The notes under the pieces: model-generated
What the model was told of the DNA's origin: nothing
What the model saw: only the letters and a program-made list of their open reading frames with translations
Databases searched by the model: none
Position numbers and translations under genes: made by a program
In this document: in pieces, positions 1-64,000 of the stretch
Position numbering within the stretch: the stretch's first letter is position 1
How the letters are laid out: each line of letters starts with the position of its first letter
Assembly: GCA_963736005.1 (NCBI GenBank)
Contig: CAVTNB010000002.1
Coordinates: 161,364-225,363 of the forward strand
Direction: 5' to 3'
Origin: an uncultured Pseudomonadota bacterium
Lineage (GTDB): Bacteria > Vulcanimicrobiota > Vulcanimicrobiia > Eremiobacterales > Eremiobacteraceae
Length of the DNA stretch: 64,000 nucleotides

Positions 1-2436
1 ACGGTAGATTTTCACTTCCTGAATTTGCAAAGAGGCGTTAGGCTGCGTAATATTCAGCGAGACCGTGTAAGTCGTTGCAGGCCAGGTCGTCAGGCCCGGC
101 TCATTCGGCCCACTTACCCAGCCCCAACTGCTATTGTTAGGGCTCATTTTATAGGTGAGCGTTTCGTTCATAAGATTGCCGATCGGAACGGGATCCATTT
201 GCTGCGCGACGGCGCCGCTCTCCCCTGGCTCTGTGTAGAACGACGTCGTTGGTGCGCTTGTCGTTCCCGGCTGATACGAGGTACCACTCACCGATGACTG
301 CGTTGGGCTAGGTGACGGGGACGGGCTCGGTGAGGGGGATGGACCCGACGATGGCGATGGGCTCGGCAAAGGCGACGGGCTAGGAGACGGTGACGGGCTC
401 GAAGACGGCGACGAGCTCGGTGATGGTGACGGGCTCGGTGATGGTGACGGGCTCAGTGATGATGAGGGGATCGGCGACGGTGACGGGCTCGGCGACGGCG
501 ACGGGCTGGGAGATGGCGACGGACTCGCACTTGAGATCTGCAATTGTGATAAGGCCGTCGCTCCCGCATCATAGGAGAAGCTTTGCGTTGACGATGACGT
601 ATTGTTAACGTAGAACTTCACCGCAAGCCGATCGGAGGCATTGGCAATTTGAGCAACGCCGGGGATTGTGAAGGTTAGGATTCCTGCGCTCCCCAAGGAT
701 TGCGACAGTCCACTGAGGTCACCGACGGTTGCTAATCCATCGTATGCCGGGCCCCCCGAGGAGTTTGTTCGAATGATCGTCACTTCTTTGATTTGCAGAC
801 CCGAGCCGGGTTGGGTCACGTTAAGCTTGACGACGTAAGTGGCTGCAGGCCACGCTGTGAGGCCGGGTTGACCGCTACCTGAAACCCATCCCCAACTTGT
901 CTTGTTCGGACTAGCTTTATACGTCAGCGTTTCATTGGTGAGATTTCCGACGACGCTTGTATCCATCTCTTGCGAGATCGCTCCGCTTTCATTTGGGAAG
1001 GTATAGAAGATGCTCTTGGGAGCCGCGGTGGCCCCGGGATAGTAGGTGCCCGGACTGCCGCTCGAACGGGCAGATGGACTCGGTGTGGGCGATGGACTCG
1101 GCGACGGTGACGGCCTCGGCGTGGTCGATGGACTTGGCGATGGTGACGGACCCGGAGACCCGCCGATGACAATTGACAGTAATGGATGCAGCTCCAAACC
1201 GCTTGGCGGATGCTGGGCGCCCGTCCAAGGGTCGTAGAAGCCCACGCCAGTTACTGTGACTGGAACATTTGGATAGATTGTGGTTGTACCAATGTTATAG
1301 TGAGCATCGATGTAGCTTCTGACCGCTTGGATTTGGCTCAAGACCAAGCTGCCCGCAGCACAAATTGGGTTGGGACTTTCCGTTATAAACTGATGTCCGC
1401 TCGAGTCTGCCAATATTACATGATAGTCCAGATCAACACCGGGGGGCTCGATGCTGTACAACGTGACGTTAGTCAAACGATAGGTGGTATATTCCACCGG
1501 TGACAGCCGAGTGGGATACTCGGAAGGCAGTGGGAAAGGCGACGGTTTCGGCAATGCAATCAAATTTGCGAGAGTGGTGTCTTTCGGCGTCAAATTAACT
1601 GACGACGCATTGCTGTCAGTGAGCACCTTTATCGGCCATCGGTAATGAGGATAGCAACTTGGGCTAGGCGATGCGGTCAGGGAGTGAAATTTCCCACTTT
1701 GGGCCGGCATTTGAGCGCCGGGATATGGTTGATCGTCGGGATCGATGTCCGGGTTGAGCGTTGCAGTCGGTGTTACTGCTGCCGGAGAGCGGGTTGGCGT
1801 GGATGATGGTCTTGGTGAAGGTAGGCGGTGCGACGCGATGGCGCTCGGTGCTGGAGACATGCTGGTTGTCGGTTTCGTCAGTTTCGCGCAATTTAGCCCC
1901 ACACAAATGGAAAGTATTGGGTGTAACTCGATTCCATTATGCGCTTGCCCGGGCTCCGTTGAGAGGAAGTCAAAAAAGCCAATGCCGCTGACGCTAATCT
2001 GCGAATTAGGCGGCGCTCGCAATATGAGATTCCCGATTGCTTGGTGGACAGCTTGAATTGCGTTGAAAAATGTCGAGCCCGACGCGCAGCTAGGATCGGG
2101 GCTCTCGACGAACATCGTGTGTCCCCTGTCGTCCCCTATGGTCAAGCGGTAGTCTTGATCGGATTCCAAGTCGATTTTGATCAACCGTACATTGGAAAGT
2201 CTATAGGTGGTCGTCTCAACTGGTCGTAAGCGGCTCAACGGTGAGAGCTGAGCTGGCGCAGACAGAGAGCCTAGTTCGGCGATCGTTGATTCGACTGCTG
2301 GGGCTAAAACTGAAAGGCTATCGGGATCAGCGCCAACCTTAATCAACCATCGTTCTGAACCGCAGGCTAAACTGACCGCCGGTGAGAGCAAGAGCACGAG
2401 TACAATAAGCGCGAGTATCGAGTGGGTCTTTTTCAA
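1..2436 (-). CDS. Secreted modular protein A (3' end runs off the window): signal peptide, two X domains, Ser/Pro linker, Y domain, Ser/Pro linker, second Y domain
   Basis: Translated by hand; absent from the ORF track because it has no stop in the window. TTG at 2436 gives LKKTHSILALIVLVLLLSPAVSLA-CGSERWLIKVGAD... and stays open to ...QEVKIYR at base 1. Frame checked at 2115, 1638 and 3. Its domains match proteins at 28134, 3328-7726 and 60847. Confidence 0.9.
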   Translation of the reverse strand, partial: MKKTHSILALIVLVLLLSPAVSLACGSERWLIKVGADPDSLSVLAPAVESTIAELGSLSAPAQLSPLSRLRPVETTTYRLSNVRLIKIDLESDQDYRLTIGDDRGHTMFVESPDPSCASGSTFFNAIQAVHQAIGNLILRAPPNSQISVSGIGFFDFLSTEPGQAHNGIELHPILSICVGLNCAKLTKPTTSMSPAPSAIASHRLPSPRPSSTPTRSPAAVTPTATLNPDIDPDDQPYPGAQMPAQSGKFHSLTASPSPSCYPHYRWPIKVLTDSNASSVNLTPKDTTLANLIALPKPSPFPLPSEYPTRLSPVEYTTYRLTNVTLYSIEPPGVDLDYHVILADSSGHQFITESPNPICAAGSLVLSQIQAVRSYIDAHYNIGTTTIYPNVPVTVTGVGFYDPWTGAQHPPSGLELHPLLSIVIGGSPGPSPSPSPSTTPRPSPSPSPSPTPSPSARSSGSPGTYYPGATAAPKSIFYTFPNESGAISQEMDTSVVGNLTNETLTYKASPNKTSWGWVSGSGQPGLTAWPAATYVVKLNVTQPGSGLQIKEVTIIRTNSSGGPAYDGLATVGDLSGLSQSLGSAGILTFTIPGVAQIANASDRLAVKFYVNNTSSSTQSFSYDAGATALSQLQISSASPSPSPSPSPSPSPSPSPIPSSSLSPSPSPSPSPSPSSSPSSSPSPSPSPSPLPSPSPSSGPSPSPSPSPSPSPTQSSVSGTSYQPGTTSAPTTSFYTEPGESGAVAQQMDPVPIGNLMNETLTYKMSPNNSSWGWVSGPNEPGLTTWPATTYTVSLNITQPNASLQIQEVKIYR
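300..530 (-). repeat. Ser-Pro linker coding repeat (TCACCG/AGCCCG/TCGCCG-type hexamers)
   Basis: Degenerate hexamer tandem repeat translating to SPSPSPSP within protein A. Confidence 0.85.
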
Positions 2437-2469
2437 CGGCTTTTCTATCTAATGAGAGAAATCTACGAA

Positions 2470-3327: not shown

Positions 3328-7726
<4,399 letters not shown>

Positions 7727-8157: not shown

Positions 8158-9105
8158 CTAACGCGTTGCAGCAAGCAATCTGTAATACGCGTTCAGCCAC
8201 CTTGCGGTGAAACCGCCCTGTCGATACTTGACAACACTGTCTTCATAAGCAGCGAGAAAAAAGAGATAGCCGTACGAAACCTTGAGTCGGGCGAGTGCCA
8301 AATGATACTTCGAAATGGCTTGATAGCGTTGTCGGACCCACGTAGCGTCCACCCCAAGCACATCGCGTTCGCCCTTAAGGAATTGTTTCCCAAACGTAAT
8401 GAGATCTTCTTGTGGGGACAACGTAAGGCGTGATCGCACCAACTGCGTGAGATTTTGGAACGCATCGTAATACTGCTCTAATATCTGCAAAGCTACCCCT
8501 CTTGAGAGGCAATCGGCAAGCATGGCCTGCTTGAGTGAATCAAGCTTGCTACCATATGTCGCTGCTAAATCCGTTGCTGCTATTGCATCAAAAAAACCGA
8601 GGGAAAATCGCAAAGAGTTGGCAACCGCGGTCATATGCCTGACCCGAATGGTCGCCGTTTTGGCTACACTAACCAAGAACGATTGATGAGTGCACAGCCC
8701 TTCGAACAGCCGGCACCATGTCTCCCCACTCGAGCTCTCTGATAGGATTTCTGAGACAAGGTCATCGCCTCTTAGTAGATGCCGTCTTGTGTGAGTCGTA
8801 AAACGCAAGATGTCTAGACAGTCAAACGGTACGATGAAGGGTTCATGGAGGAACAGGCCGTGAAAACTCTTTGGGAGCTGGCGGTAGACTGAAAAGAACT
8901 GAACGTTGTCCAGCTTGGCGTCACGGACAATGAGTAACAAATCGAGGTCGGACAACCCAGGATACTTAACATTCCCAACTTGATAAACAGCTAGCGCTCG
9001 AGCCTCAACTCTTTGCGCGTACAACATCGCCGCTTGTGTATAAAGATGCGGGTCGATAGGGGTAGGGAAATCCTTGAAATGCGCAACTACAGGCTGGCTA
9101 TGCAA
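8158..9105 (-). CDS. Pol-beta superfamily nucleotidyltransferase-domain protein
   Basis: Motif VYQVGNVKYPGLSDLDLLLIV (hG[S/N]-x-DxD) followed by a helical C-terminus; overlaps the upstream gene. Confidence 0.7.
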   Translation of the reverse strand: MHSQPVVAHFKDFPTPIDPHLYTQAAMLYAQRVEARALAVYQVGNVKYPGLSDLDLLLIVRDAKLDNVQFFSVYRQLPKSFHGLFLHEPFIVPFDCLDILRFTTHTRRHLLRGDDLVSEILSESSSGETWCRLFEGLCTHQSFLVSVAKTATIRVRHMTAVANSLRFSLGFFDAIAATDLAATYGSKLDSLKQAMLADCLSRGVALQILEQYYDAFQNLTQLVRSRLTLSPQEDLITFGKQFLKGERDVLGVDATWVRQRYQAISKYHLALARLKVSYGYLFFLAAYEDSVVKYRQGGFTARWLNAYYRLLAATR

Positions 9106-10043
9106 TCCAAGAACTCTTGACAGCTTGTCGTAAATGCATCCGAGCGATCACCGAGCAACTCACGAACATTGGCACTAGATTGGTACATGCGCGATAAGCG
9201 AATTATCGCGTGTGGGTGAAACATCTTTGAGACTATATGCTGAGTCATACGGGCGGGAGGTCTTCGCCAGCGTAACCTCATGTCTTCGGCCTGGCGAATA
9301 GCACCCCAAGCGACGCCTGGAAATTCTTGCGGTCCAAGAGCAAAGGAATCTCTCTTATAGCAAAAAATATCGACGGACGCCAAGAGTAGACTAGGCATGA
9401 GGAGCAGCCCCGACAGAACGGACTTAAATGCATAGTCGTCACGCTCGTGATCTCTTCGTTCCAAACGCCCAACTAACGACTCGATCGATGCCTGAAGTCT
9501 TAATTTTGTGTTAGGGGAAACCACCTTTCTGAGGGTGATTGACGGTGTTCCCCAAATCACGAGCGCGTTGCGCAGTGTCTCCACTGGCAAGAAGGATTCC
9601 CGATATGAGTCAAATTCGCTGCGCAACATAAACATGAAGCCGTGATGCATGAGGCAATCATAGAGAAACATCGAGCGAAGCAAGGTTTGCAGTTCGGATA
9701 CGGCATTTTGATGCTGCGTTGCCGTAAAGGAACGGGAATCATCAAGTACCACAAGGACGTCAACGTCACTGAAGCCACAGGTATCACCGGTCGCCTGACT
9801 TCCGTGCACGAGGATCTGATGTATCGGCTCTAATCTCGCACCGTCAACTCTAAGATCAAGGTTTTTCACACCGCTGCTTTGGCGGAGCGGCAGCCGAAGT
9901 TCACCTCCTGCCGGCATTGACGGATTCAAGCCTGCAACCGCGGGCGGTCGTGAGCGCCTAGGGGCAAAAAGGTGCCGGCGGCGTAGGGCTTCCCCGTTGA
10001 CCCAAACATCGTAGTATGTCACCAAATCCACTGTCTCATACAT
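9087..10043 (-). CDS. Pol-beta superfamily nucleotidyltransferase-domain protein
   Basis: Motif ILVHGSQATGDTCGFSDVDVLVVL (GS...DxD); later YDCLMHHG; helical C-terminus; overlaps the GT2 stop. Confidence 0.8.
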   Translation of the reverse strand: MYETVDLVTYYDVWVNGEALRRRHLFAPRRSRPPAVAGLNPSMPAGGELRLPLRQSSGVKNLDLRVDGARLEPIHQILVHGSQATGDTCGFSDVDVLVVLDDSRSFTATQHQNAVSELQTLLRSMFLYDCLMHHGFMFMLRSEFDSYRESFLPVETLRNALVIWGTPSITLRKVVSPNTKLRLQASIESLVGRLERRDHERDDYAFKSVLSGLLLMPSLLLASVDIFCYKRDSFALGPQEFPGVAWGAIRQAEDMRLRWRRPPARMTQHIVSKMFHPHAIIRLSRMYQSSANVRELLGDRSDAFTTSCQEFLDCIASL

Positions 10044-10980
10044 CTGTTTTTACGTCCTGTTTCTTTGCGTGCGCCCATCTATTGGCAAGCAGCCACCCCA
10101 AGTACGTTGGATTCAAGAGCAACCAGAATCCATGGGCAAAGGCGCTTGGATATGCTCGCGATGCCAACGACTCACGAAGGCCGACGTGATGCATAATGCC
10201 GATGGCCATCCGCCATCGCCGGTACGAGACGTGCTGGCGATACCGCTCGAGGATGCGCACCCGGTCTTGCGCCTTCGAGTAATCGTTCCGGGTTGTCGAG
10301 GAGCCAGGCCGAAGATATCGATACACCGCATGTGGTTGCGCAACTAGATGCACTGGATAACCTGCAGAAAGACATCGCAACCACAAATCCCAGTCCTCGC
10401 CATAGTGCAGGGACACGTCAAATAATCCAACCTCATCAAATACGCGCCGCGGCACAACCATCATATAAGATAAGAAATTATCCTCGAGAGATGCGCTGAG
10501 CTGTTCAGCCGGGCCACGCTCGAAAATCCATTCCACCCCGCGTTCATGATAGTTCCCAACGCTGCTGATTCGACCGTCCACCCGCACAAAAAAATCGGTC
10601 GTTACAATTTGCTGGACAGAACTGTCCAGGCGTGTGCTTAAAGCACCCAAGCGGTTGGGAAGCCAATAGTCATCAGCATCAAGAAACGCGATATGCTCCC
10701 CACGGGCCGCCGCTATGCCGGCATTTCGCGCCGCAGCGACGCCTTGGTTGTGCTGATAAAGGTAGCGCACGCGTGCTCCAAAACGCTGCGCTACTTGCGA
10801 GGTTTCATCGGTGGACCCGTCATCGACAACGATGATTTCGTACTTGTCAACCGGATACTGTTGGGCAAGAACACTCTCAATTGCCTGGCCCAACTGCGCG
10901 GCACACTGAAATGTGGGAATGACGACGGAAACGTCGGGCTGTTTTGGCGTAAGATCCATGTGATACGTCTCGCTCGCCAC
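10036..10980 (-). CDS. Glycosyltransferase family 2
   Basis: VSVVIPTF, IIVVDDGSTD, ARNAG, AFLDADD, EDWDLWLR. Confidence 0.95.
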   Translation of the reverse strand: MASETYHMDLTPKQPDVSVVIPTFQCAAQLGQAIESVLAQQYPVDKYEIIVVDDGSTDETSQVAQRFGARVRYLYQHNQGVAAARNAGIAAARGEHIAFLDADDYWLPNRLGALSTRLDSSVQQIVTTDFFVRVDGRISSVGNYHERGVEWIFERGPAEQLSASLEDNFLSYMMVVPRRVFDEVGLFDVSLHYGEDWDLWLRCLSAGYPVHLVAQPHAVYRYLRPGSSTTRNDYSKAQDRVRILERYRQHVSYRRWRMAIGIMHHVGLRESLASRAYPSAFAHGFWLLLNPTYLGWLLANRWAHAKKQDVKTDV

Positions 10981-13519: not shown

Positions 13520-14776
13520 GTGCGGTTCCTCATTCTTACACAATACTTCCCTCCGGAAATCGGAGCTCCCCAGATTCGTTTGGCTGCCCTTGCACGATGC
13601 TTGAAGGTGTACGGTCACGAGGTTGAAGTTGTTACCGCCCTGCCGCACCACCTCATCGGAAAGATCTACCCCGCATACCAGCACAAGATCTACGTCAAGG
13701 ATAGCTTCGAGGGTATCACCGTGCATCGGACCTGGGCTTACGCAGCAACTGGCACCGGGTTTGCTCGTTTGATAAACTACCTCTCTTTCGCATTCACCTG
13801 TGCACTTGGCACCATGCGCGCAAAGCGGCCGGATTACGTCTTTGTTGAATCGCCACCACTCTTCTTAGGAGTCACGGGTGTTGCGTACTCAATGTTCCGC
13901 CGCGTTCCAATGATTTTTAATGTTGCTGATCTTTGGCCGGATTCGGTTCGAGAGCTCGGCATTTTGAAACCCGGCTTGCTGCTTTCTTTAGCCGAGCGAG
14001 TCGAGAAATGGATCTACAAACGATCCCGCTTTGTCAACTCAGTGACCGAGGGAATTAGGCATGTCCTTATCGAGCGGAAAGAGGTTTTGCAATCAAAGGT
14101 GCTCATTCTCCCCAACGGTGTCGACACGTCACTCTTTGCACCGCGTAAGCCGGATATCGCGTTGGCAAAGGAGCTCAAGCTGGATGATCACAGAATCTTT
14201 GTATATGCCGGTACGCATGGCGTTGCGCAGGGGCTGCTGACGTTGATGGACGCAGCGGCGCGGCTCAAAACTTATGGAGTCGCGCTCCTCTTCATCGGCG
14301 ACGGACCAGCAAAGCCAATGCTTCTTCGACGCGTCACCGAGGCGAACTTAACCAATGTCATCTTTGTAGGAATGCAGCCCGTCGATGAGATGCCGAGATT
14401 CTTTTCTTTGGCGACCGCCTCCATTGTCCCCCTGGTGAAGGGTGATTTGTTCAAGAGCGCCCGCCCATCGAAGATTCTCACATCTCTTGCTTCTGGAGTA
14501 CCGGTCATCTTCTGCGGCGAGGGAGAAACCGCCTCATTCTTGGATGCCAGCCGCGCCGGGCTGGTTGTTCCTCCGGAGGATCCTGAGGCTCTCGCAGATG
14601 CCATTGAGCGGTTGGCTAAGGATCCGATGTTGCGTGATGAGCTTGCAACCAATGCCCGCAGGCTCGCTCAGAACTTTGATTGGAATACGTTGGTCAGGCG
14701 GTGGCTAGACGATTTGTCAAAGGCCCAAGACAGTGCATTGAGGCAAAGTGGTTCTACACTGCCCGATGGAACATGA
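13520..14776 (+). CDS. Glycosyltransferase family 4 (WbuB-like)
   Basis: LTQYFPPEIGA, RLINYLSF, SPPLF, DLWPDS, YAGTHGVAQGL, PSKI...LASG.PV. Confidence 0.92.
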   Translation: MRFLILTQYFPPEIGAPQIRLAALARCLKVYGHEVEVVTALPHHLIGKIYPAYQHKIYVKDSFEGITVHRTWAYAATGTGFARLINYLSFAFTCALGTMRAKRPDYVFVESPPLFLGVTGVAYSMFRRVPMIFNVADLWPDSVRELGILKPGLLLSLAERVEKWIYKRSRFVNSVTEGIRHVLIERKEVLQSKVLILPNGVDTSLFAPRKPDIALAKELKLDDHRIFVYAGTHGVAQGLLTLMDAAARLKTYGVALLFIGDGPAKPMLLRRVTEANLTNVIFVGMQPVDEMPRFFSLATASIVPLVKGDLFKSARPSKILTSLASGVPVIFCGEGETASFLDASRAGLVVPPEDPEALADAIERLAKDPMLRDELATNARRLAQNFDWNTLVRRWLDDLSKAQDSALRQSGSTLPDGT

Positions 14777-16178
14777 ATTCGGCCGCTGTTTTTAGGAGCA
14801 AGGTCAGGTCCAGAAACATCGACCAATGCTCGATGTAAAACAAGTCGTGGCCAAGCACTTCGGCAACATCATCAGGCGAGAGGTTGCGCTTCATGTTTAC
14901 CTGAGCCCAACCTGTTATTCCGGGAAGTGCGAGGCGGCGCTCAATGTATGATGGAACCTCGCGAGCGAAACGCTCTTCGAACGATCGCATCTCCGGACGA
15001 GGACCAACAAGCGACATATCGCCGAGAAGAACGTTGAATAATTGAGGCAGCTCGTCGAGGCTAGTCCGTCGTAATATGCTACCTACTCGCGTGATGCGAG
15101 TGTCCCCGGGGATCGCCCAGGCCGAATCGGCATCGGTCTTCATGGTTCGGAACTTCAACATCGAAAAAATGCGACCGTATCGTCCGATGCGCTCCTGTTT
15201 GAACAGAATTGGTGTTCCGGATTCCATCCGAATCGCTAGACTGGCAATGAGCATAATTGGGGCACTCAGGACGATCGCGACGGCCGAGAAGGTAATGTCG
15301 AGAATCCTCTTGCTGAGTGTCGCCAGTGGCCAGCAGATCCTCGGATACACCGGCCGCAGGAGACGCTGGCTCCCTTTGCGTTCTAGTTCGAAGTCATACG
15401 TACCCAGCTCAATATTGGGCAAGGCGAGGGTTACAGCTGTAGGAGAGTTTTGGCACAAGGCTAGCAGTTGTCGAATGCTTCGTTCATCTTGTGAACCCGC
15501 TATTACGATTCGATCGCACCGCCACTCGATCGCAGCGTTGAACCAAGCCCTGGCGAGATCGTCACCCGATCGGATCGCCTGACCGCGCTCACTATCCACG
15601 TCGAGCGTCACAAAACTCCCACCTCCGTCGTGAGATAGGCTTTCTCGGACGACGTTCGCTTCGCTTGCGCTCCCGATTATCAGATAACGACGAGAACGGC
15701 TCTTTTCGATCGCCGCACGGACAAGATGAATTGTAGACCTCGTCGGTCCGACTAAGCCGATTGCCAGAGCTAGGGACAAGAGAAGCGCTAAACGTGAGGT
15801 TGACCAAATGGGCATGGCCGTAAAAAACAAAAGTTGCGGAATAACCCCTAGCGTTAGCGCGATGATGGTGAAGTAGAACTCATCCTTGAATGAGAGCGCC
15901 AAGGACCGGCTGTAGAGGCCCAATGCGTAAAAAATTCCGACCCAAACGCCCACGAACAAGATCGACGACGTGCGAAATCGAAAGATTGCGGCCGGCAGGT
16001 CCCAGCGGTGGTCTACAAGCGATCCAGCAATGTATGCTGCGAGAACAAACATTGCAAGGTCACTTAAGAACAGCGTGACCGACCAGAACGCCGTGTAGCG
16101 AACCGAGGGTCTAGAACTAGTTCTTACCGACCAGCCAAAGGCGTAAGCCTGCTGCTCCTCGTGCGCTCGCAAACTCAT
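14754..16178 (-). CDS. Priming undecaprenyl-phosphate sugar-1-phosphate transferase (WcaJ/WbaP-like)
   Basis: N-terminal TM helices; KRILDI, KFRTM, LRRTSLDELPQLFNVL.GDMSLVGPRPE, PGITGWAQV, DLFYI. Confidence 0.95.
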   Translation of the reverse strand: MSLRAHEEQQAYAFGWSVRTSSRPSVRYTAFWSVTLFLSDLAMFVLAAYIAGSLVDHRWDLPAAIFRFRTSSILFVGVWVGIFYALGLYSRSLALSFKDEFYFTIIALTLGVIPQLLFFTAMPIWSTSRLALLLSLALAIGLVGPTRSTIHLVRAAIEKSRSRRYLIIGSASEANVVRESLSHDGGGSFVTLDVDSERGQAIRSGDDLARAWFNAAIEWRCDRIVIAGSQDERSIRQLLALCQNSPTAVTLALPNIELGTYDFELERKGSQRLLRPVYPRICWPLATLSKRILDITFSAVAIVLSAPIMLIASLAIRMESGTPILFKQERIGRYGRIFSMLKFRTMKTDADSAWAIPGDTRITRVGSILRRTSLDELPQLFNVLLGDMSLVGPRPEMRSFEERFAREVPSYIERRLALPGITGWAQVNMKRNLSPDDVAEVLGHDLFYIEHWSMFLDLTLLLKTAAEFMFHRAV

Positions 16179-16426
16179 TGTAGTGACTTCATTAGGCCTC
16201 AGTCCGCCAATCCTATTCCGGCTAAAGATTTGGTGTGAGGGTCCAAAAGGCCCAAACGCTAGCGCTTCTTCCTTCTGCTACGAGTTCACATTGCGGCTCT
16301 GAAGATCAATGACCACGTCACACCAATCGGGGGAAAGCCCACCTCTTGCGCCAAGACGAGCAACAAAGAACCGCCTCGATGACTCTGCCGAGTCAAGCTC
16401 GGAGCGCCTCCTCGCGCTGAATAAAC

Positions 16427-18289
16427 ATGCGAATTGCTGTTGTTGTCGGCTTTGACTACCACGCTGCTTTGTTCTGCAAGAAGACAAATGCTTACGCCAC
16501 GTCATGGCACTTTGACTATTACCCTTCGACGCGGGTTGGAATCGTGCAAGCCTTTCTAAGGATTCGAGATGCGGACGCGCTCATTCGATTTGGTGGTCCA
16601 GCGCCACATCCCATTCTGATGGCTGCGGCTCGTGCGAGAAAAATTCCCATCATCGTCATTTGGGCGGGGACAGACGTCAGCTTGCTCCTAGAACGACCAT
16701 ACAAGGTCTCGCAGGTACTACGGGCAGAGATCACCCACCTAGCGGTTGCTCCCTGGCTTGCAGACGAGTTGAAACAGGCTGGGATTGCGGCGCAATATAT
16801 CCCTATCATCGGGATGAATCCAAATTATGGCTCTGACATACCCAAGGGGGAATTCAGCGTACTCAGTTACTTACCAGAGCCTCGCCGCGACTTCTACGGT
16901 AGGCAACACGTCTACGACGTTGCGCGAAGGCTTCCAGACGTAAACTTTCTGATTGTTGGACCTGGTTCGCCAGACGGGAATGCGCCTCCTAACACCAGTT
17001 TCTTGGGTCTGCTACCTGATATCACATCGATTATAGATCGTTGCGCCGCTTTACTGAGAGTGCCCGACCACGATGGCATGTCCCTCGTAGTTCTTGAGGC
17101 CCTTTCGCGGGGCAGATTTGTGGCCTGGAAATATGACCTTCCTGGCGTACAACAGGTGGCGACTTCGAACGATACCGTCAAGTTTCTATCGACCTTGCGT
17201 GCTCAATTGGCTTCGGACGGTGCACAATCTAATACTCTAGGAATCAACTTTATCGCAACCCGTTATGACGAACGAGAAGTCGCGCTCGGTGTGGAGCGCC
17301 TCTTAAATCAAATCGTCGATGCAAGGCACCGTTTGACGGCAGACTCTCGCCAGGTCGTGGTCTTCGGGCTCGATATTTTTGTAGCGGACCTGGCAAACTT
17401 GAATAACCAGACGATCACGGGGTGGAATGCCGAGGTCTTGCAACTTGAAACAAAATATGAAGCTTTTGGCGCCCTCTTGAATCTAGCAAAAAGCGACGTC
17501 ATCTATACGGTGGGAGCGCCAGCGCTTGGCCGTGCGGCGAACTTTGTGGCAAACATCACGAGAAAGCCCAGGGTCATGCACTGGGTCGGGACCGATATTG
17601 AAGTTGCGCGCAGGAATCCGAAATTGTCGCGGAGGCTTAACCGGCCACTCATTACCCATCTCGCTGAGGTTGAATGGGAGGCCGATGAGTTGCGATCCAT
17701 TGGAATTCACGCGCAGATTGTTCCTCTACCGCCCCGACTTTCAGGGCCAGTTTCCTTGACACCATTGCCGAGCGAGTTTACGTTGCTAACGTACCTCCCA
17801 CGCGTGAGGGCCGACTTCTACGGCAGACGAGAATTAGAATTCATTATGCGATCGTTTTGCAACGAACCCATAAAGTTCCTCATCGTGGGAGGCGGGGCGA
17901 TTGATGTGCCGCCGGGCGTAAACGCAGATAATCTAGGCTGGTGCTATTCACTGACCGAGGTTTACGCGAGATCCTCCGCACTGTTTCGGTTTACGCCGCG
18001 CGATGGTCTTTCGCTCATGGTTCTGGAAGCACTTTCGTTTGGTAGACATGTGTTGTGGACGCAGAGCTTCCCATTTGTAACACAGGTGCTTTCTGTTGAA
18101 GGCGCCATCGATGCATTGAACTATTTGCTTGATCGTTTTCAAAAGGGCCGCCTCGCGCCGCAAGCGGATGCCGCTGAGTTCGTTCGCACCGCGTATGACC
18201 GGAAGCGATGCATCAGCCGAATAGCGGGCGTTTGGGATTCGGCAGTCCGTCACAAGAGCGACGACTCAGCCAGGGGCGCGCTAGAATAG
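16427..18289 (+). CDS. Protein with two tandem GT-B/GT4-like glycosyltransferase units
   Basis: Internal repeat: WAGTDV...SYLPEPRRDFYG...HDGMSLVVLEALSRGR and WVGTDI...TYLPRVRADFYG...RDGLSLMVLEALSFGR. Confidence 0.8.
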   Translation: MRIAVVVGFDYHAALFCKKTNAYATSWHFDYYPSTRVGIVQAFLRIRDADALIRFGGPAPHPILMAAARARKIPIIVIWAGTDVSLLLERPYKVSQVLRAEITHLAVAPWLADELKQAGIAAQYIPIIGMNPNYGSDIPKGEFSVLSYLPEPRRDFYGRQHVYDVARRLPDVNFLIVGPGSPDGNAPPNTSFLGLLPDITSIIDRCAALLRVPDHDGMSLVVLEALSRGRFVAWKYDLPGVQQVATSNDTVKFLSTLRAQLASDGAQSNTLGINFIATRYDEREVALGVERLLNQIVDARHRLTADSRQVVVFGLDIFVADLANLNNQTITGWNAEVLQLETKYEAFGALLNLAKSDVIYTVGAPALGRAANFVANITRKPRVMHWVGTDIEVARRNPKLSRRLNRPLITHLAEVEWEADELRSIGIHAQIVPLPPRLSGPVSLTPLPSEFTLLTYLPRVRADFYGRRELEFIMRSFCNEPIKFLIVGGGAIDVPPGVNADNLGWCYSLTEVYARSSALFRFTPRDGLSLMVLEALSFGRHVLWTQSFPFVTQVLSVEGAIDALNYLLDRFQKGRLAPQADAAEFVRTAYDRKRCISRIAGVWDSAVRHKSDDSARGALE

Positions 18290-18423
18290 GTGGGAGCGAA
18301 GGAGCACAAAAAGCGCTGTGTTTATTTTTTTGCGCATGCATGCAAGGCGGAGGTAGAACTTCAGTCCGCCGTAGGACTTAAGTCCGAATGTAGGCAACAA
18401 GTTCGCTTGAACAGCGTTAATAA

Positions 18424-21679: not shown

Positions 21680-21697
21680 ACCTAAGACCTGGCAGTA

Positions 21698-24048: not shown

Positions 24049-24068
24049 GCTAAGCGGAGATTCAATGC

Positions 24069-33228: not shown

Positions 33229-33625
33229 CTTGACCTTCTTTCTGACGCCTGCGAGGTTAGCTGACGGGTTAGCGCCGAAAGTAGCGCGTCCGCAATCAAT
33301 TGCGGATTCACCCCCAGATTCAATGCGGTTCCCCCGCTCCATAATCCGATGGATTCGGCAAACAGGTTTTCCTAACTGAAGATACTCCACTATTCTCTTG
33401 GAAAAGTGGACGGATTCGTCAGGACTAAGCAATTACTCCAAATGCAGCGATGACCTTGCATGGCGCAAGTTCACAGCCGACAGTATAGCGAGTCTTTATC
33501 ACTTTGTCTAGCGTGTTTTTTCAGGTAGTGCTGGGGGTTTGCTTGTTCGCAACCAAGCAAGCTCTGGCGCAACTTCTTGCTTGGTCGACGGAAGATAATC
33601 GAAGTGGTGAACGAAGGCTTCCGGC

Positions 33626-42398: not shown

Positions 42399-42992
42399 CG
42401 CGACTGCGGCCTTGCTGATCGAATCGCCCGTCCTCGTCCAGGCCTCGCCACATAGCTTGCAAGTGGCGGACTCTGACGCAAACGGGAGCATCCCTCCGCA
42501 CTCGCAGGCAAAGCCCATCTGGCGCGCGGGGTTGCCGTACACAACGATATGCGCTGGAACATCTCTTGTGACGACGGCGCCCGCACCCACAAAAGCGAAT
42601 TCCCCAATTGTGTGCCCGCAAACAACGGTCGCGTTGGCTCCGATGCTCGCGCCCCGCTTCACAAGAGTGACCAAATAGTCTTTAGGCTTATTACGGGGTA
42701 CGGCGGAGCGAGGCGTGTTGACGTTTGTAAACACCATGCTCGGGCCGCAGAAAACATCGTCCTCGAGAACAACCCCTTCATAAACGGAGACATTGTTTTG
42801 GATCTTGACATTGTTGCCGATTCGCACGTGCGAGGCGATAAAGACGTTCTGTCCGATGGTGCAGCCCGTTCCTATCGAGGCGTGAGCCATCACGTGGCTG
42901 AAATGCCAAATCTTGGTCCCCGCACCGATTTCGCACGGCTCGTCGATGCACGCTGTACGATGGGCGAAGTAGGGTAACGTTTCCGTCTTCAT
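42395..42992 (-). CDS. wbpD: Hexapeptide-repeat N-acetyltransferase (WbpD-like)
   Basis: IGAGTKIWHFSHV, VKIQNNVSVY.GV.LEDDVFCGPSMVFTNV..PRS, GASIGANAT, C-terminal CECG...CKLC. Confidence 0.9.
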
Positions 42993-43978: not shown

Positions 43979-43984
43979 AAGCCG

Positions 43985-45337: not shown

Positions 45338-47376
45338 TATGAACCAACCACTCCGGCTGGCTGCGAGCCTTCCAATGCCCGCGGATACTGCGAATCAACG
45401 AATTCGACTTCTTCTGGGTGGCCGTTGGTTTCGGCCGCCACACGACCGTTCCGTGAGGGCGCCAACGACGGCTGCTCGTCAAGCATTTTACCGCTGGCGC
45501 CGTCGTCGAGCACGTGCGGACCTGGCTGATACGACCTGACGAAGTTACGCAGCACGTCGACGACGACTTGCTGATCGCCAGCGCGGGCGCCGGCTTCCAG
45601 CGCACGCAATCCCAGCGCGAGCGTCTCGTAGGCAACACGTTCTTGCTGCGCGATAAAAAGACGCGCGTGGCTGGTCGTTGACATACCTTCATGTATCGTC
45701 AAAATTTCTTCGAACAGCTTCTCACCCGGCCGGATCCCCGTCTCGACGATGGCGATATCGCGGTACGGGGTGAGACCTGAGAGCGTGATGAGCGTCTCAG
45801 CGAGTCTGAGGATATTCACCGGCTTGCCCATGTCGAGCACCAGCACCTGACCGTCTCGTCCTATAGCCATGGCTTGCAGCACGAGGGAAACGGCTTCGGG
45901 GATGGTCATAAAATAGCGTTGCATGTCTCGGTGCGTAATGGTCAGTGGGCCGCCATTTTCAATTTGCTTCTTGAAGATGGGAATGACGCTGCCGCGGCTC
46001 TCGAGCACATTGCCAAACCGGACCGTGACGAACTCAGTTCCCGTCTGGTTCACAAAGGATTGTGAAATGATCTCGGAGAGTCGTTTCGTCGCCCCCATGA
46101 CGCTTGTGGGATTCACCGCTTTGTCGGTTGACAGCAGAACGAACTTTGCGGTCCCTGCGGCCGCAGCAGCCAGACGCCACGACATGCGTTCCGAGAACAT
46201 TGTTCCGCGCTGCCTCGCAAACGTTTGCTTCAACAATCGGGACGTGTTTGTGCGCGGCCGCGTGAAAGACAACGTGCGGACGGTACTGCGAGAACACGTT
46301 GCGAATGCGCGAGGCGTCTGCCACATCGGCGAGGATGATCTTGGTCTTATTGAACCCAAATTTCAGGTTGAGCTCTTCGTTGATCGCAAACAAGACTGTT
46401 CTCGCCGTGACCCAAGAGCAGCAAGAGACTAGGGTTGAGACCAACGATTTGCCGACACAGCTCGCTGCCGATGGAGCCCCCGGCCCCGGTCACCAAAATC
46501 ACCCGATTTTCGACGTGGGGTTGAATCTCCGAAAGCTCAACGTTTACTGGATCTCTCGGCAGCAAGTCCTCGGGCTGCACCGGTCGGATGCGAGAAACCC
46601 GCACGCCGTCGTTGAGCAGCTCGAGCACACCGGGCAAAATCTTGACCGCAGGCGAACCGCCATTTGGCCCGCACTCCCGCATGCAGTTGCTAATGATCCG
46701 TTTAACCAGCTGAGGCGATGCGGACGGAATGGCGATGATGACACAAGCGACTTCGTGCTCGTCGATAAGGTGCGGCAGGGCATCGATGTTACCTAAAATG
46801 GGCTTTGCCACCTACGCGTTCCGCTAGGATCTCATCGTCGACGCAGCCGACTACGGCATAGTTGAAGTTATTGTTTTCTTGAATGAGGCGCACGAGCGAG
46901 GCCGCGGCTTTCCCCGAGCCGACGACGATCGTGCGTTGCGTGTTGGGTCGACGCTCGTTGCGCATGCGCTCAAGTTCAAGCTGGGCTAGCCGAAAGACGA
47001 GGTTGAACAGAATGATAATTAGGGCTGCTATGAGCACTGTGCCAAGCTCGAGCCCAACTGCTCTCGGCAGGACCAGTCCAGAGCACGGCTCCTGCCGACT
47101 GCGCCTGCAGCGACGCCGAACGACGACTGCCGCCAGATCCCGGGAGTCAAGACCGAATCCAGTTGCCGGGCGCGCAGCGCCGAAACCAAGGGCTACCACA
47201 CTGAATACTGTCGTGAGAATCAGCACGGCTGCCAAGTGCGGACCGCTTGCCGGCCCATCAACAATCGCAAACGCCAGCTCGCATGCAACAAAAGCGAGTA
47301 TCACTTGCGCTGCGAACATAACCAATGACGCCCGGTCAGAGCGAGGTTGTGTGCCTAGCGTTGTCGTCTTACTCAT
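45337..47376 (-). CDS. Membrane-anchored UDP-GlcNAc 4,6-dehydratase (WbpM/PglF/CapD); several frameshifts
   Basis: N-terminal TMs; EDLL.R.PV, TGAGGSIGSEL, HAAAHKHVP, STDKAVNPTSVMGATK, VRFGNVL, RYFMTIPEA, RPGEKL. Confidence 0.9.
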
Positions 47377-47402: not shown

Positions 47403-49573
47403 TCACCCCATTCTCGTGGGGTAGCGGCATAGGGTTGTACCGCTCAGATAGTATGCCGCGTATCCATTCGACGGCGTAGCTCTATTTAAGACTACACCGA
47501 GCATGTTGACACCCTGTACCGCGCTAAGGCGCTGCATAGCTTTTCGTGTCGAGGGCATATCTGTTGAATTTGCCGAGATGACGAGCACCGTGCCGTCAAC
47601 CTTTGTCGCCAGGATGGCCGCATCGTAAACCGGCAGCAAGGCGGGCGTGTCGAAGACAATGGCTCGGTATTCCTTCAGCAGCTCTGTGATAAGGTTGTCA
47701 AGTCGAGGGGAGTGAATTAGTTTCACGGGGTTCGGGACGAGCGTTCCGCCACTAAGCAAATAAAGACCATCGTATTTTGTACTCTGGATCGCGTCGCTAA
47801 CTGGGGCTTCCCCCACGAGAACGTCCGAAAGCCCAGGGCCTGCAGCCAGTCCCAACCCCTCGTGGAGCTTGGGGCGGCGCAAGTCTGCATCAACCAGCAC
47901 TACCTTTGGTTCGATCTCTGCCATCGCGATCGCAGTGCTCATGGCGATCGTGGTCTTGCCATCGCCCTGATGCGGACTCGTAATTGCAAGCGTTCGCAAA
48001 GGCTTATCCGATGAGTACCGCAGCGCCGTGACTAGTTGCAAAAACGACTCGACGGTCAGCGCGCGCAGCCAGGGCAGCTTCTTGGGCGAATCGATGTTAG
48101 CTGCGGCACGGAGGTGAGGACAGGCAACGGGAGAGTGCGCTGAACATCGTGTTCGTCCTTGAAGGTATTGTCGAAGAAATCGACCACGAATACGCCACTG
48201 ATCGCGAGCACGAGTCCGATCGCGAAACCAAGGATGAGATTAAGGGTCCAACTCGGTTTCTTGGCTAGCGTGGAAGGCGTTGCCGGCTGGGTAATCGACA
48301 CATCACTCAGCGCGGTCGTGCGCTCAACCATAGCCTCGCTGTACTTTTGCTGCAGCGCCGCATAGATATCTTCCGTCATCTTAGCGTCGCGTTCAAGTTT
48401 GGCAAGCTCGGCTGTCTGCGCTGGTAGCGAGTTAAGCGCTCCGCTGTATCGGCCCATCTCGATGTCCAGCGTCTTCATTTGCGCCCTGGTCACCTGCAAT
48501 CTGCGAGCGCAGCGTGGCGGCCTGTTGGCTCAATTGTTGGTAAACGGGATTGGCAACAACGTCGTTTGAAGAATCGATTGTCGAAGGCTGGCTTCCGATC
48601 TCACGCTGCAGTTGCGCCTTTTGCTCCTCCAGTGCTTGAACTGCTGGATACTGCTCGGTGTACTGTTTGCGAGCCGTGTCCAGTTGAACCTCGACCTGCG
48701 CCAATTGGGTCTGGAGTTGGGCGGTGACCGGGTTCTGAATAATGTTGCGTGAACCGATGGATGTAGGACTCAGACCGCTCATTTGAGCAGTTACGTTGCT
48801 GAGTTGAGCTTGTGCTTGTTCTGCATCAACCTTTACTTGCGCGTAACGCTGCGTTGCAGTGGCCACTGCGCTATCCGCGCCCTGCGTGTCGGTTCCAATG
48901 GTTACGTAGACGTCTGGATGCGCGGTTTGAAACTGGCCCAGGGCGCTTTCTGACTTACGCATCGTTGCCTCGGCCAAGGGCAACTGCTGGTTCAGATAAT
49001 CAATGGCCGATCCAGCCTGACTGGCGATGAGTTCTCGCTCGCGATTGACGAAGACCGTCGCGAACTCGTTCGCGATGTTGATGCGCTGTGTGGGGGTCGC
49101 CCCACGTCGCAGAAAGTTGAATGATGGAAGTATTGGTAACAGGCTTAACATCAATGTACTTGTTAAGTAATTGTTGAACACCGATATTGAGCTTCAGATT
49201 TGCGATAACTTGCTTTACGACGGGATCTTCTTGAATGAGATCCACATACGTCTCAGCCGTCATCGTACTGCCCGCTGCGATCAGGGCATTGAGCATAGGC
49301 AGCGTCGAATTGCCCTGAGGCGCGGCTCCATTACCTGAATTGCCAGCTATCAGTTTGGTTGTAGCCGTGTAGCTCCTTGGCACCACGGCCGTCCACAAGA
49401 CGACGAAGGCAAAAGAAACCAAGCAGGATTGCGAAAAAAACTCGCTTGCGTCGCAGCAGAGTACCGAAAAGCCCTGGAAGGTCTGTCTCTCCCGACGGCT
49501 CAGGAGGAGCTGTCGGGTAGCCAGATGGCAGTTGATATTGTTGCGCTGAGCGTAAGGCAGGGCCGAAATACAT
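47403..49573 (-). CDS. wzc: Polysaccharide co-polymerase/tyrosine kinase Wzc; several frameshifts
   Basis: Wzz-like N-terminus (YTATTKL), coiled coil with YT..YP.V, second TM, Walker A PHQGDGKTT, VDADLRRP, FDTP, Tyr-rich tail. Confidence 0.88.
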
Positions 49574-49600
49574 GGCGTTTAGTGTTCCTTTATCTTTCTT

Positions 49601-50386
49601 CTATGGCGTTGGCGTGCCCGTGCAACCGGCTTGCCCGCCTGGGCAGGGTGTCGGGATTGTAGCGTCACCGCTAGTCTTGACAGCAGCCAGATCGGTCTTG
49701 ATCGTCGTGCTCGTCGTCTGGCTCGGATTCCAAGACGGCGCGCCGGGGAACAGCGTCTTATTTGCGGCGCTTCGTGCTGCAATGTCGTTCAGCAGTGTTG
49801 TCTCCGGTCCATTCGGCGATGTCTTCAGCGATACTAACCAGGCTTGACAGTCGCGTTGAAGTTCCAGTCATCAAACGCGGTCGTACCAGAAGGTGAGTTA
49901 TTGAATACATACAGACTCACGGCCGCCGTGTAAACATCACTGGCATTCCCGTCGAGGTACTGGTTACGCGTGGGCTTGTTGCCAGCAAACTGCGTCGTCC
50001 AGCCTTCGGCACCACTTGCGTTAGTGGCAACGACGATATAATTGCGGCTAGGCACGATCGTGTAGTTTGGATCCGGTGCGCTTGGGGTCGGCGTAGACTT
50101 CGCCACTAGGGTAAACATTCCGGAGCCGTCAGCTGTCGCGGTTCCAGCTTGAACCGAACAACCGCATGAAAACACCACGGTCGCGTTAGCAGCAGGGGCC
50201 GTACGTGAACGAGCCAACGGTTCCGCCTGTCGCTACCTGCATTTTGCCGGTAAGCCCGGGACTCGCAGCAGGCGTTGGGGGCGGAGGGTTGATTGTTCCG
50301 CCGCCACCGCCACCGCCGCATGCGGCGATTAACGCGGTCACCATCAGCGCGCCGATTGCTGAGATTGTTGTGCTTCGCTTGGTCAT
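49601..50386 (-). CDS. Lipoprotein of unknown function between wza and wzc (~260 aa, two frameshifts)
   Basis: LIAA-CGGGGG leader; track ORFs 50186..50386 and 49834..50217 continue by hand as AWLVSLKTSPNG...PTPCPGGQAGCTGTPTP to TAG at 49601. Confidence 0.7.
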
Positions 50387-50426
50387 GTGTTGTATTGGAT
50401 CTCCTATTTCTCTTGATTAGTAGGCC

Positions 50427-51356
50427 TTACAGGCCAAAAAGCTTTAGCGTCGAGAGGAGGTAGTAGGCTGACTGACCTAGGAAGCCGCCGCCGGCACCGC
50501 CGATCCGACCCTTCATCGATGGCACAAAAACCAGGTCGCCCTTTTGCAGAATCAAATCTTTCGAGATGTCTCCACCCTCTAAAGTCTTGTAGAGGTTGAC
50601 CCGCATTGGCGTACTGGTACCATCTGGCATCGTTCTAGTGACGGTGATATTGTTGAGATCTGAATTTGCCGCCTGACTGCTTCCAGCCATCGCGATTGCC
50701 TGAGATAGACGGTCGCCTTCTCTTAAATCGACCTCTCCTGGATGATCGACGGCACCCACCACGTGAATGCTGATCGTTAGCGGCGACGCGATATATACAA
50801 TCGAACCGTCTTGCAGTGGTATGTTGAGAGATGTGTCGCCTTGATGAAGCAGCTTTTCAAGCGAAACTTGGGTCACTTGGCCACTAGGGGAACCCACTCG
50901 CGCGTCCGGATACTGCCCCTCAATTGGATTCATACCCCCCGCGGCTGCGATAGCGTCGGTGAGACTACCCGTTGGAGGGAGCGGGTATTTTCCAGGCGTC
51001 TTTACGTCGCCCAGGACCATCACATTGACTTGTCCGACTTGTGTCACGGCAACGGTAACATCAGGGTGGCGAACATATTTTTGTAGCGATGTACGTATGG
51101 TGGCAGCCGCTTGTTCGGGCGTTTCACCTGCCACGCGAACCTTCCCGACAAGGGCCAAGGTTATGCTGCCGTCAGGCAATACCGTCACAGGACCGGTGAG
51201 CGTTTGCTCGCCGTACACGACCACGTTGAGCTGGTCGCCACTGTGAATGATGTATGAGGTATCGGCACGCCCTCCCGCTGATAGACTCAACGTGAGCACA
51301 CCAGCCGCAAAGAGCATCATAAGAGGCTTCATCACGTTTTTTTCGGCTCTCCTCAA
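50427..51356 (-). CDS. wza: Polysaccharide export protein (Poly_export plus SLBB repeats)
   Basis: YIIHSGDQLNVVVYGE, V.PDG.I.L.LVG.V.VAG.T, VLGDVKTPG.Y, DAIAAAGG, LQKGDLVFVP. Confidence 0.9.
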   Translation of the reverse strand: MRRAEKNVMKPLMMLFAAGVLTLSLSAGGRADTSYIIHSGDQLNVVVYGEQTLTGPVTVLPDGSITLALVGKVRVAGETPEQAAATIRTSLQKYVRHPDVTVAVTQVGQVNVMVLGDVKTPGKYPLPPTGSLTDAIAAAGGMNPIEGQYPDARVGSPSGQVTQVSLEKLLHQGDTSLNIPLQDGSIVYIASPLTISIHVVGAVDHPGEVDLREGDRLSQAIAMAGSSQAANSDLNNITVTRTMPDGTSTPMRVNLYKTLEGGDISKDLILQKGDLVFVPSMKGRIGGAGGGFLGQSAYYLLSTLKLFGL

Positions 51357-55921: not shown

Positions 55922-55963
55922 CGTGTTGGGCGTTTCTTTACCGCTTGTCGTCGCCCAGTCGGT

Positions 55964-63800: not shown

Positions 63801-64000
63801 CGGGGCTCCCCGCTACCCCGAGCGGTCCGCTCAGAACGCGAGTCACCCGCGCCGAATCGAATCCGAATACTCGGTTGATAATGGTGAAGGCTTGGGCAGA
63901 GCGCAGCGAATACCAATCCAAGGCGGCTGTCTGACGGTCGCCGGCGAGTCGAAAGTTCGTTCCAGCCATCTGCGCATACGCGTTGTCTGCAGACCCCACC
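60847..64000 (-). CDS. Modular protein I (5' end off window): Z domain, Y domain, linker, DUF5666-like domain, linker, PQQ-type beta-propeller
   Basis: TTFHNNNLRTGW...ET.LT..NV...FG, VDG.V.AQPL, VATEHNS.YAFDA, GITSTPVI, ATGNG, F.SP.VANGRVFV; the N-terminal part matches protein B. Confidence 0.9.
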   Translation of the reverse strand, partial: VGSADNAYAQMAGTNFRLAGDRQTAALDWYSLRSAQAFTIINRVFGFDSARVTRVLSGPLGVAGSPEAALDNQILTYAAAGQYANAFAVAARVTVPSGAALPSTVRPMYRRLIQVHQPNAVLTNLGATLDLARASHLALLAYEGPDQTAATPGVAWSLAMKPTYSQLFYDRSLEAWHAGGGALFVTSSFNLDDRARLSGIAAYVARHPYPHARPIGNYLFVPPPTPQPEAPQHHGAFNPALIGVVVSPHGGGTKQPLPTNLRRLVSSGTTTYTPGTMAGPTAMFYTLPGESGAVSQQMDPSPIGTLTNETLTYKVSPNNSSWGWVSGPNEPNLTSWPATNYVVTLNITQPNASLQLREVKIFRVNSSGGPGYNGLALVADLPNLTQSLGTAGSLTYTLAGSAQTASATDRLVVKFYTRNLGSSTESFSYDAGAGAVSGLSVGSSTSPPPSPSPSPSASPSPSPTPSSSSSPVAQAVVDRWDSSFYYVQGTGAQTSCGHFKVAYNVNTIFVPSQAAIVVGSNITIFGTGTCSKDNIVASQISLTGSPSPSPSPSQSPSASPSPTSSSADMTTFHNNNLRTGWDSQETKLTTSNVASSNFGQVGQLKVDGNVMAQPLFVGNYQVPGQGTHNLVIVATEHNSIYAFDADSLQQIWHVNYGPSQYWSSVGCGDITPEYGITSTPVINRTGAGSGTIYFVAATEVGGVFHTQLHAVDIGTGADQKTAVEINPSALLTNGSMIHLDAQHQMSRTSLFMSNGWVYVGIGSHCDDRVTVVTGWMLRYDTSLNLLSTFNTEDDPASQSLASIWMSGYASVADASGNIFFATGNGPFDANTGGKNYGETVVKLTPDLSRVLTWFTPADFATLNTNDTDQGAGGVMIIPGSNDIVSKGKEGRIFLLNQSSLGGMTSNDSGALQIFQDLDGTWGGPAYFSGPGGVQYVYYQSNDHSLRSFTFNGSQLSLFQTATGNGGFGGSSPVVSSNGSQTGTGIVWVAQRGSTVTLQAYDATNITNPLFTGNAGTWSNKHQNPFVSPIVANGRVFVGATNTLTVFGLLH
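63222..63994. repeat. Long direct duplication, copy 2 (continues off the window)
   Basis: Matches 6073..6845. Confidence 0.95.

Follow-up and report, generated by a model that had tools for sequence, protein, structure and literature searches.

In our study, we analysed the final 64 kb of contig C2 (CAVTNB010000002.1) of an Eremiobacterota (Vulcanimicrobiota) genome, G000 (2.84 Mb, 84% complete); this stretch of 64,000 nucleotides is called the window. It contained a polysaccharide biosynthesis locus and nine genes (A to I) in which a few modules, named W, X, Y, Z and DUF5666, recurred in different orders. Judging from the sequences, the core of the system is module W, a predicted glycoside hydrolase that was linked to polysaccharide loci across the class, while X, Y, Z and DUF5666 appear to form a wider pool of exported modules recruited by W in some lineages. 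From structural models, sequences and the analogy with known systems, we consider it reasonably probable that W is a retaining endo-alpha-glycosidase of an uncharacterised family related to GH168 and GHL15, and that its exported copies cut the polymer of the surrounding Wzy-Wzc-Wza locus.

The W domain of gene H was folded with AlphaFold2 from 103 sequences, and the model (predicted local distance difference test score, pLDDT, 97.5) gave a predicted TIM barrel followed by a small C-terminal beta-sandwich. Among 48,161 representative chains (VIA), the four best matches were GH168 structures (Z-scores 24.5, 22.8, 22.3, and 21.6), with a root-mean-square deviation (rmsd) of 3.6-3.9 over 308-321 residues and an identity of 9-12%. 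The highest score was that of 9F9V (rmsd 3.9, 321 residues aligned), and the same entry was at the top of the Foldseek search. The next matches were GH191 (15.9), GH36 (15.6), GH66 (15.4), and the PelA hydrolase domain (14.8).

A profile of 95 W domains, comprising five window copies and 90 from the loci of relatives, found 9F9V at E 5e-6 and aligned Asp148 and Glu237 of W with chain positions 155 and 231; only this broad profile matched, and that of the close subfamily had no match in the Protein Data Bank (PDB). The catalytic pair of the 9F9V enzyme is D152/E228, and a double-displacement mechanism has been proposed for Fun168A (PMC11685898). The offset between the chain positions and the published residues was 3 for both residues. 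Asp148 was conserved in all 95 domains, followed by Tyr58 (94/95), Asn209 (93/95), and Glu237 (93/95, Asp in the other two). The Tyr and Asn motifs after strands 3 and 5 were aligned between W and GH168. The catalytic pair was intact in all six W copies of the window, and both acids were retained across copies that are about 20% identical. The GH168-like fold and the conserved Asp/Glu pair, aligned with that of GH168, make W a likely active retaining alpha-glycosidase, related to GH168 and not filed in it. An earlier, preliminary description of this DNA had supposed enzymes among these proteins, and for W the predicted fold and the intact pair agree with it.

GH168 is reported to have a strictly conserved 'polar knuckle' lysine beside a conserved Glu (PMC12534559). 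Lys41 of W was present in at least 90% of the close subfamily but in 22 of the 95 domains of the broad family; it is located seven residues from Glu34, and no match to the GH168 lysine was confirmed. The sequences also relate W to GHL15 (PF14885), of which it is not filed as a member: a language-model search (Atlas) gave GHL15 clusters at 0.96, 15 of the 95 W relatives matched at E<0.01, and 4 of 41 genomes had a match over the 27-bit gathering cut-off. The window copies of W had no GHL15 match in Pfam, and the Pfam, NCBIfam and PHROG scans named none of W, X, Y and Z of the window. The W family comprised 760 clusters at 50% identity (E up to 1e-10).

The linkage of W was examined in 57 regions of at most 20 kb, each centred on a W match; they came from 41 genomes and were picked by hand on contigs of sufficient length, with short-contig matches excluded. 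The controls were 20 hand-placed regions from 19 genomes. Window genes and one wzx were used as marker queries, and a polysaccharide locus was called when at least three marker classes were found. This was the case in 42 of the 57 W regions versus none of the 20 controls. The genes for Wzy, Wzx, Wzc, Wza or a priming transferase were found in 41 W regions, wzy itself in 37, and W was often the direct neighbour of wzy in the same orientation, mostly with a lipid anchor and a long stalk. In the window's own genome, 3 of 138 tiles contained at least three marker classes, all from the window locus. A hand count showed at least one W in a polysaccharide locus in 39 of the 41 genomes.

Among 151 sampled genomes of the class, W was found in 62 (1-8 matches each), wza in 94, and wzy in 97. 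Of the 100 genomes with wza or wzy, 61 contained W; of the 51 with neither, one did, a 210-contig assembly. The tallies for X (151 genomes), Y (201), W against wza/wzy, and family V (below) include up to three unpublished genomes (G011, G013, and G159), and no conclusion rests on them singly. W is dependent on the locus and not required by it, since 39 of the 100 wza/wzy genomes are without W. The preliminary description had named homologues scattered without linkage to exopolysaccharide loci as the finding that would speak against it; for W this objection fails, because the linkage was found class-wide.

Two other parts of that description were not supported. Sulfation appears to be incidental, with a sulfotransferase in 2 of the 57 W regions of relatives. 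The nine genes do not appear to form one system either: none of nine Z-centred regions had three marker classes, and none of seven regions with stand-alone X, X-Y or X-X-Y-Y was in a polysaccharide locus, yet the X-X gene of G095 adjoins wzx and a GT2 gene. X was found in 30 of 151 genomes, Y in 8 of 201, and Z in 17 of 201, mostly once, as a Z-propeller protein resembling I. Relatives contained W-Y and X-W fusions, the former within polysaccharide loci, and among the matches listed W has, across the class, LamG domains, linkers alone, or from none to three DUF5666-like repeats.

Some results weigh against our interpretation of W. Fifteen of the 57 W regions were outside such loci, as orphan or weakly marked copies, and no W was found by profile in 39 of the 100 genomes with wza or wzy. 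The counts are descriptive and overstate the number of events, since kin are not independent. The polymers of W-linked loci differ in gene content, which an enzyme family of strict specificity would have to track. The identity of W to GH168 is just 9-12%, and the fold matches of X and Y are middling (best Z-scores 9.6 and 11.3). In addition, the locus could be decaying here, because no wzx was found within the 64-kb window (three flippase-family matches were on other contigs of the genome) and several pathway genes were frameshifted. The assembly contained many indels, with wzc in four pieces, capD in four and wecB in two when compared with intact relatives, and the assembly of a congener, G002, was broken at other places. 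We read the indels as long-read errors more probably than as decay. A wzx gene was present in the locus of G002 and in those of many relatives.

The preliminary description had also proposed an expanded and shuffled set, and near-identical cassettes and the fusions in relatives bear this out. Genes G (33783-34909) and H (35885-37011) were 99.5% identical over 1,127 bases, with different N-termini. In G002 the G/H pair was 97.7% identical within the genome and 83.8% identical to the copies of the window genome; repeated gene conversion is indicated by copies that are closer within each genome than between species. Similarly, 787 bases of Z were 97.7% identical between B (6063-6849) and I (63212-63998), up to the contig end, while the Y modules of the two genes matched at only about 54-69%. 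G002 contained one Z only, gene D was not found at this place in G002, and gene I is the likely donor of the Z of B. In a quick tree of 42 W domains, made with no bootstrap, all six window copies fell in one clade (SH-aLRT 100) with the copies of the congener and two copies of G155, and G and H grouped by species. Module shuffling thus appears from these sequences to be real and recent, and still in progress.

The layouts were recovered by all-against-all BLASTP and module profiles, and the nine layouts described earlier were found again, except that B is split by a frame switch and I has no start at the contig end. The W module (about 420 aa) was present in six copies with 46-93% protein identity; X in three in the window and two on contig C1, Y in four, Z in two, and the DUF5666-like module in five. 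C, E and H consist of W behind a signal or lipoprotein peptide and a linker. Gene A runs 242 bases past the left edge of the window, where its open reading frame (ORF) is complete, with X at residues 26-180 and 260-425 and Y at 463-634 and from 719. A lipobox pattern was found in C (LSGC), D (TYAC), F (LAGC), G (LIGC), and H (LSGC), and none in A, B and E; the hydrophobic N-termini of E and B were read by eye, and export of the W copies rests on these and on the lipobox pattern. DUF5666 of Pfam was above the cut-off in G only (28.5 bits), followed by F (E 0.0006) and D (E 0.002), and the copy in I was found by a local profile (5.5e-7). Module borders had been placed mostly in Pro/Ser/Thr linkers; this held for A, B, D, H and I, and the linker pattern was not found in C, E, F and G.

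Gene B consists of two ORFs, one with Z, Y and a Pro-Thr repeat and one with W, whose frames switch near position 4803 inside the repeat, and the fusion requires one net frameshift. It is likely, because the W frame has no start before the first strand of the domain except through the repeat. No contig from four public sequencing runs bridged the repeat; word shares were at most 0.13, and short contigs of two runs (one study) matched pieces of W0 and Z at 95-100%. The coverage of an RNA run was restricted to the repeat and counts as no evidence of expression. Opposite-strand and Arg-rich ORFs over the repeat (4560-5569) were rejected as shadows, and MSCRAMM matches to B arise from the frameshifted repeat. 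Gene I is without a start because the contig stops at window base 64000, within Z. A tenth shuffled gene, frameshifted, was seen left of the window on the + strand (G000 C2, about 159600-161091; L113); it encodes a lipoprotein with a DUF5666-like module akin to that of I, a Pro/Thr linker, and a phosphoesterase-like domain (labelled by eye). Phosphoesterase genes of Pfam were also seen near wzy in several loci without W.

The X-linker-Y model from gene A had a pLDDT of 86.8. X had many matches to OB domains (Z-scores 8-9.6, rmsd 2.5-3.3 over about 100 residues). Y was modelled as a galactose-binding-like jelly roll, with the C-terminal domains of CocE/PepX (11.3, 10.7) followed by CBM4/CBM27 (7.7-8.9). 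For both modules the matches speak for the fold, not for a ligand. Module Z had no match in PDB, Pfam, NCBIfam or PHROG by profile or single sequence, its profile is unrelated to that of W, and its distant relatives carry CBM35/CBM6 or malectin domains. Its full-length relatives contained the motif pair EYSNE.W...YEGG, which we take to be the Asn-Glu acid/base and the Glu nucleophile of clan GH-A. In B and I the first motif was EYGYQVW, and YEG was kept. On this reading of the clan, the loss of the Asn-Glu motif makes Z a likely disabled hydrolase, that is, a domain of carbohydrate-active type without its likely acid/base Glu. The Atlas clusters nearest to Z (window 6203-7585) were unnamed, about half of them phage-derived (score 0.96). 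The Z-propeller protein with the motif change (1050-1180 aa) was conserved, and several genera have one copy of it.

In the established pathway, Wzy polymerises lipid-linked repeats, and Wzc-Wza form the route of export. In the mechanism that we favour, W would cut the amino-sugar/uronic-acid polymer of its own locus by double displacement. The lipid-anchored C, F, G and H may remove chains that have stalled or been mis-sorted, and may shorten or release the coat bound to the cell, and the unanchored E and B would work in the periplasm or in the matrix. The non-catalytic modules, namely the OB-type DUF5666 and X, the jelly roll Y, and Z, may be binding or spacer units. The place of action of each W copy and the tightness of its hold would depend on its anchor, stalk and binding modules. 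Duplication, gene conversion and recombination would hold the catalytic cassette common while the N-terminal modules change.

W could also be mainly a transglycosylase, which cleaves the growing chain and links it anew to a second chain, to a surface glycolipid or to glycans of the Pro/Thr stalks, and builds or anchors the matrix. Retaining double-displacement enzymes can transfer to sugars. The position of W beside wzy, its anchoring on long stalks and the up to 8 matches per genome, which seem many for clean-up, are in keeping with this role, as is the mechanism proposed for GH168 (PMC11685898). We regard it as unlikely, since W was not found in 39 of the 100 wza/wzy genomes and the known precedents, in the accessible sources, are hydrolases or lyases. 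Somewhat less likely still is that one W copy serves the own polymer and the additional paralogues have adapted to the related polymers of strains nearby, as a means of foraging or of entering their biofilms. The expansions are lineage-specific, as the clade of the six window copies indicates, paralogues differ by up to 54%, and the 15 W regions away from a locus fit such a use; however, G and H were homogenised rather than diversified, and most extra copies remain inside the locus.

It is improbable that W degrades external glycans, such as algal, lichen, fungal or moss polysaccharides, in the way GH168 acts on fucoidan, with its position being historical. The closest solved relatives are catabolic fucanases of utilisation loci, and a sugar ABC transporter is present at 53366-56884, but the biosynthesis linkage was found in 39 of 41 genomes, W was nearly absent from genomes without wza/wzy, and the scan of 50 window ORFs revealed neither an exo-glycosidase nor a sulfatase gene. 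The least probable explanation is that all nine are non-catalytic matrix or adhesion proteins like RbmA/RbmC, which attach to the polymer or carry glycans that the Wzy_C protein, as a ligase, adds to their Pro/Thr linkers, since W keeps both catalytic acids across very divergent copies, although Z has lost its Asn-Glu motif and the best NCBIfam match of the Wzy_C protein is a putative O-glycosylation ligase (71.7 bits, far below the cut-off of 188.1). For A, D and I, which contain no W, such a non-catalytic role is plausible.

The concept of a locus-encoded polymer-processing enzyme is already established, and the claim of an 'undescribed system' falls in its categorical sense, with the Vibrio rbm cluster, AlgE1-7 and PslG/PelA as precedents. 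What was found is an undescribed variant of this known theme of polymer processing within exopolysaccharide loci; it is class-wide, and its enzyme family is uncharacterised. Our search, largely of the open literature, found no paper on the W family or the arrangement; lists of GH168 in supplements could include such members. GH168 (Rho5174/9F9V, PbFucA, and Fun168A/D/E) and GHL15 share with W the TIM barrel, the C-terminal beta-sandwich and an equivalent Asp/Glu pair. Lys41 of W is not family-wide; W is cysteine-rich and occurs in biosynthetic loci of soil bacteria, whereas GH168 occurs in marine fucoidan-utilisation loci. The activity that defines GH168 is that of an endo-alpha-fucanase on 2-O-sulfated fucan; sulfotransferases, as noted, were scarce in the W regions.

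PslG, PelA (GH166) and AlgL are, like W, exported processing enzymes encoded with synthesis genes, and the PelA match noted above is to the barrel of W. For PslG, which acts in a Wzx/Wzy pathway, a failsafe role in clearing misrouted polymer has been proposed (PMC13434223), and PelA produces a secreted low-mass form of the polymer (PMC9894940). These enzymes are single-copy and of another family, whereas W is present in 1-8 copies with variable anchors and modules. The rbm cluster of Vibrio cholerae, between vps-1 and vps-2, similarly places secreted polymer-cleaving and modular binding proteins between two locus halves, with the lyase RbmB, the domain-variable RbmC/Bap1, and gain, loss and duplication of domains (bioRxiv 10.1101/2024.08.19.608685, PMC11637428). 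RbmB is one beta-helix lyase, whereas the gap here contains five paralogous hydrolase genes and one binder, mostly lipoproteins, and no homology was found. AlgE1-7/AlyA3 of Azotobacter are likewise clustered secreted enzymes that remodel their own polymer and are assembled from different numbers of a catalytic and a binding module; the R-modules tune where and how tightly the enzymes work, and binding modules are shared with a lyase (PMC4444821). They are epimerases or lyases with beta-helix modules, have no homology to W, and are not described inside a synthesis operon in the accessible source. PslG, PelA, RbmB, AlgE7 and AlyA3 all cut their own polymer (PMC13434223, PMC9894940, PMC4444821, PMC11637428, bioRxiv 10.1101/2024.08.19.608685).

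The genes of the window are given in Table 1. As described earlier, six of the modular genes (C-H, 26515-37335) are flanked on one side by the glycosyltransferase/sulfotransferase block and on the other by the block of aminotransferase, wzy, nucleotide-sugar, wzc and wza genes.

Table 1. Positions of the genes, blocks and predicted catalytic codons in the window, with examples of family V from other loci
Feature	Position	Strand
Gene A: signal peptide, X-X-Y-Y (OB, OB, jelly roll, jelly roll), Pro/Ser linkers	1..2436	-
W domain (ORF 3328-4515), frame open back into Pro-Thr repeat; likely C-terminal part of gene B	3328..4803	-
Gene B, N-terminal part: signal peptide, Z, Y, long Pro-Thr repeat	4565..7726	-
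Unannotated gene (8158-9105), nucleotidyltransferase-fold gene (9087-10043), GT2	8158..10980	-
Glycosyltransferase block: five GT4-type genes, priming transferase (14754-16178), amidotransferase (18424-20274), sulfotransferases (23035-24048, 25165-26169)	13520..26169	.
Gene C: lipoprotein-W	26515..27918	+
Gene D: lipoprotein-X-(Pro/Thr)-DUF5666	28134..29354	+
Gene E: signal peptide-W	29918..31345	-
Gene F: lipoprotein-DUF5666-W	31537..33432	-
Gene G: lipoprotein-DUF5666x2-W	33626..35533	-
Gene H: lipoprotein-Pro/Ser/Thr linker-W (W 35728-37011, copy used for folding)	35728..37335	-
Codon of Asp148 in W of H, predicted nucleophile	36568..36570	-
Codon of Glu237 in W of H, predicted acid/base	36301..36303	-
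Aminotransferase, Wzy_C-family membrane protein (38715-40199), UDP-GlcNAc 2-epimerase, second aminotransferase, acetyltransferase, Gfo/Idh dehydrogenase, nucleotide-sugar dehydrogenase, CapD-type dehydratase; several frameshifted	37532..47376	-
wzc (four pieces), wza-type export gene (50427-51356)	47403..51356	-
Gene I: Z (cut by contig end)-Y-DUF5666-like-propeller	60847..63999	-
Family V examples (two from L211-L230, one from G000)	L212:13127-14146; L211:15047-17639; G000 C1:31945-32982	

The window locus contained the priming transferase, glycosyltransferases, Wzy, Wzc and Wza of a Wzx/Wzy-dependent pathway, although the Wzy_C protein might instead be a ligase, in view of its NCBIfam match. 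The set of dehydrogenase, Gfo/Idh, aminotransferase, acetyltransferase and 2-epimerase genes presumably corresponds to the WbpA/B/E/D/I route to a 2,3-diacetamido-uronic acid. No GDP-fucose synthesis gene was named among the scanned ORFs. Gene I is 9.5 kb from wza, beyond the sugar ABC transporter and comM. The named W relatives were from Eremiobacterota/Vulcanimicrobiota records, and a Gram-negative envelope is reported for a cultured representative of the phylum (PMC9758169).

Several other genes were observed. The pair at 8158-10043, beside a GT2 gene, recurs next to wzx in G002 and G095 and may, we presume, transfer a phospho-substituent to the glycan in LicD-type fashion. A small unannotated lipoprotein (2470-2928) is located between A and B, and its homologue adjoins the X-W fusion of G010. 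The unannotated gene at 52293-53003 is also present in the congener. A response-regulator-like gene (51353-51910) is directly upstream of wza, and LuxR-type regulators were seen in several loci of relatives. Five more paralogues of the locus sulfotransferase were found elsewhere in the genome (G000 C2:19734-41931, C2:139882-141054, and C1:2053776-2054501). Frameshifted multi-pass membrane proteins, GT-C-type-like by eye, are near both ends of the region (G000 C2:157780-159562, window 59000-60200), and homologues of the former were found in other wzy loci.

Loci without W contained another lipoprotein, family V. Twenty wzy regions from the 39 W-less genomes with wza or wzy were searched; no W was detected in them, and 16 carried one or two copies of family V, which was present in only five loci among the W regions searched. 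The family is unannotated and unrelated to W, has the same lipoprotein-linker design, often in tandem with Pro/Thr linkers, and was found in 91 of 151 genomes, often also off-locus. An Asp and a His were invariant, a Glu and an Asp near-invariant, and no match was found in PDB or Pfam; by its sequence, V is a candidate new glycan-active family. Proteins with PF06662 (the C-terminal domain of D-glucuronyl C5-epimerase) were seen in the W-less wzy loci L211, L212, L214 and L222, and Amj-type flippases were seen beside wzy, in place of Wzx, in many W-less loci. A speculative idea, to which we give a low probability, is that an exchangeable 'remodelling slot' beside the Eremiobacterota wzy is filled by the GH168-like W or by V. 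Stalked, lipid-anchored retaining enzymes would there cut and re-join the exported polymer outside the membrane, cross-linking or anchoring it. They would be the bacterial equivalent of the transglycosylases of fungal and plant walls, and continuing conversion of cassettes and exchange of modules would have diversified them.

For W as a polymer-cutting glycosidase, the analysis proposes an enzyme role that can be tested, for a large family without annotation in a soil phylum that is abundant but hardly cultured. The GH168 fold has until now been characterised on marine fucans; the analysis puts it in a biosynthetic context and names a predicted substrate and two residues. Enzymes with specificity for rare amino-uronic polymers would be useful in the analysis of glycans.

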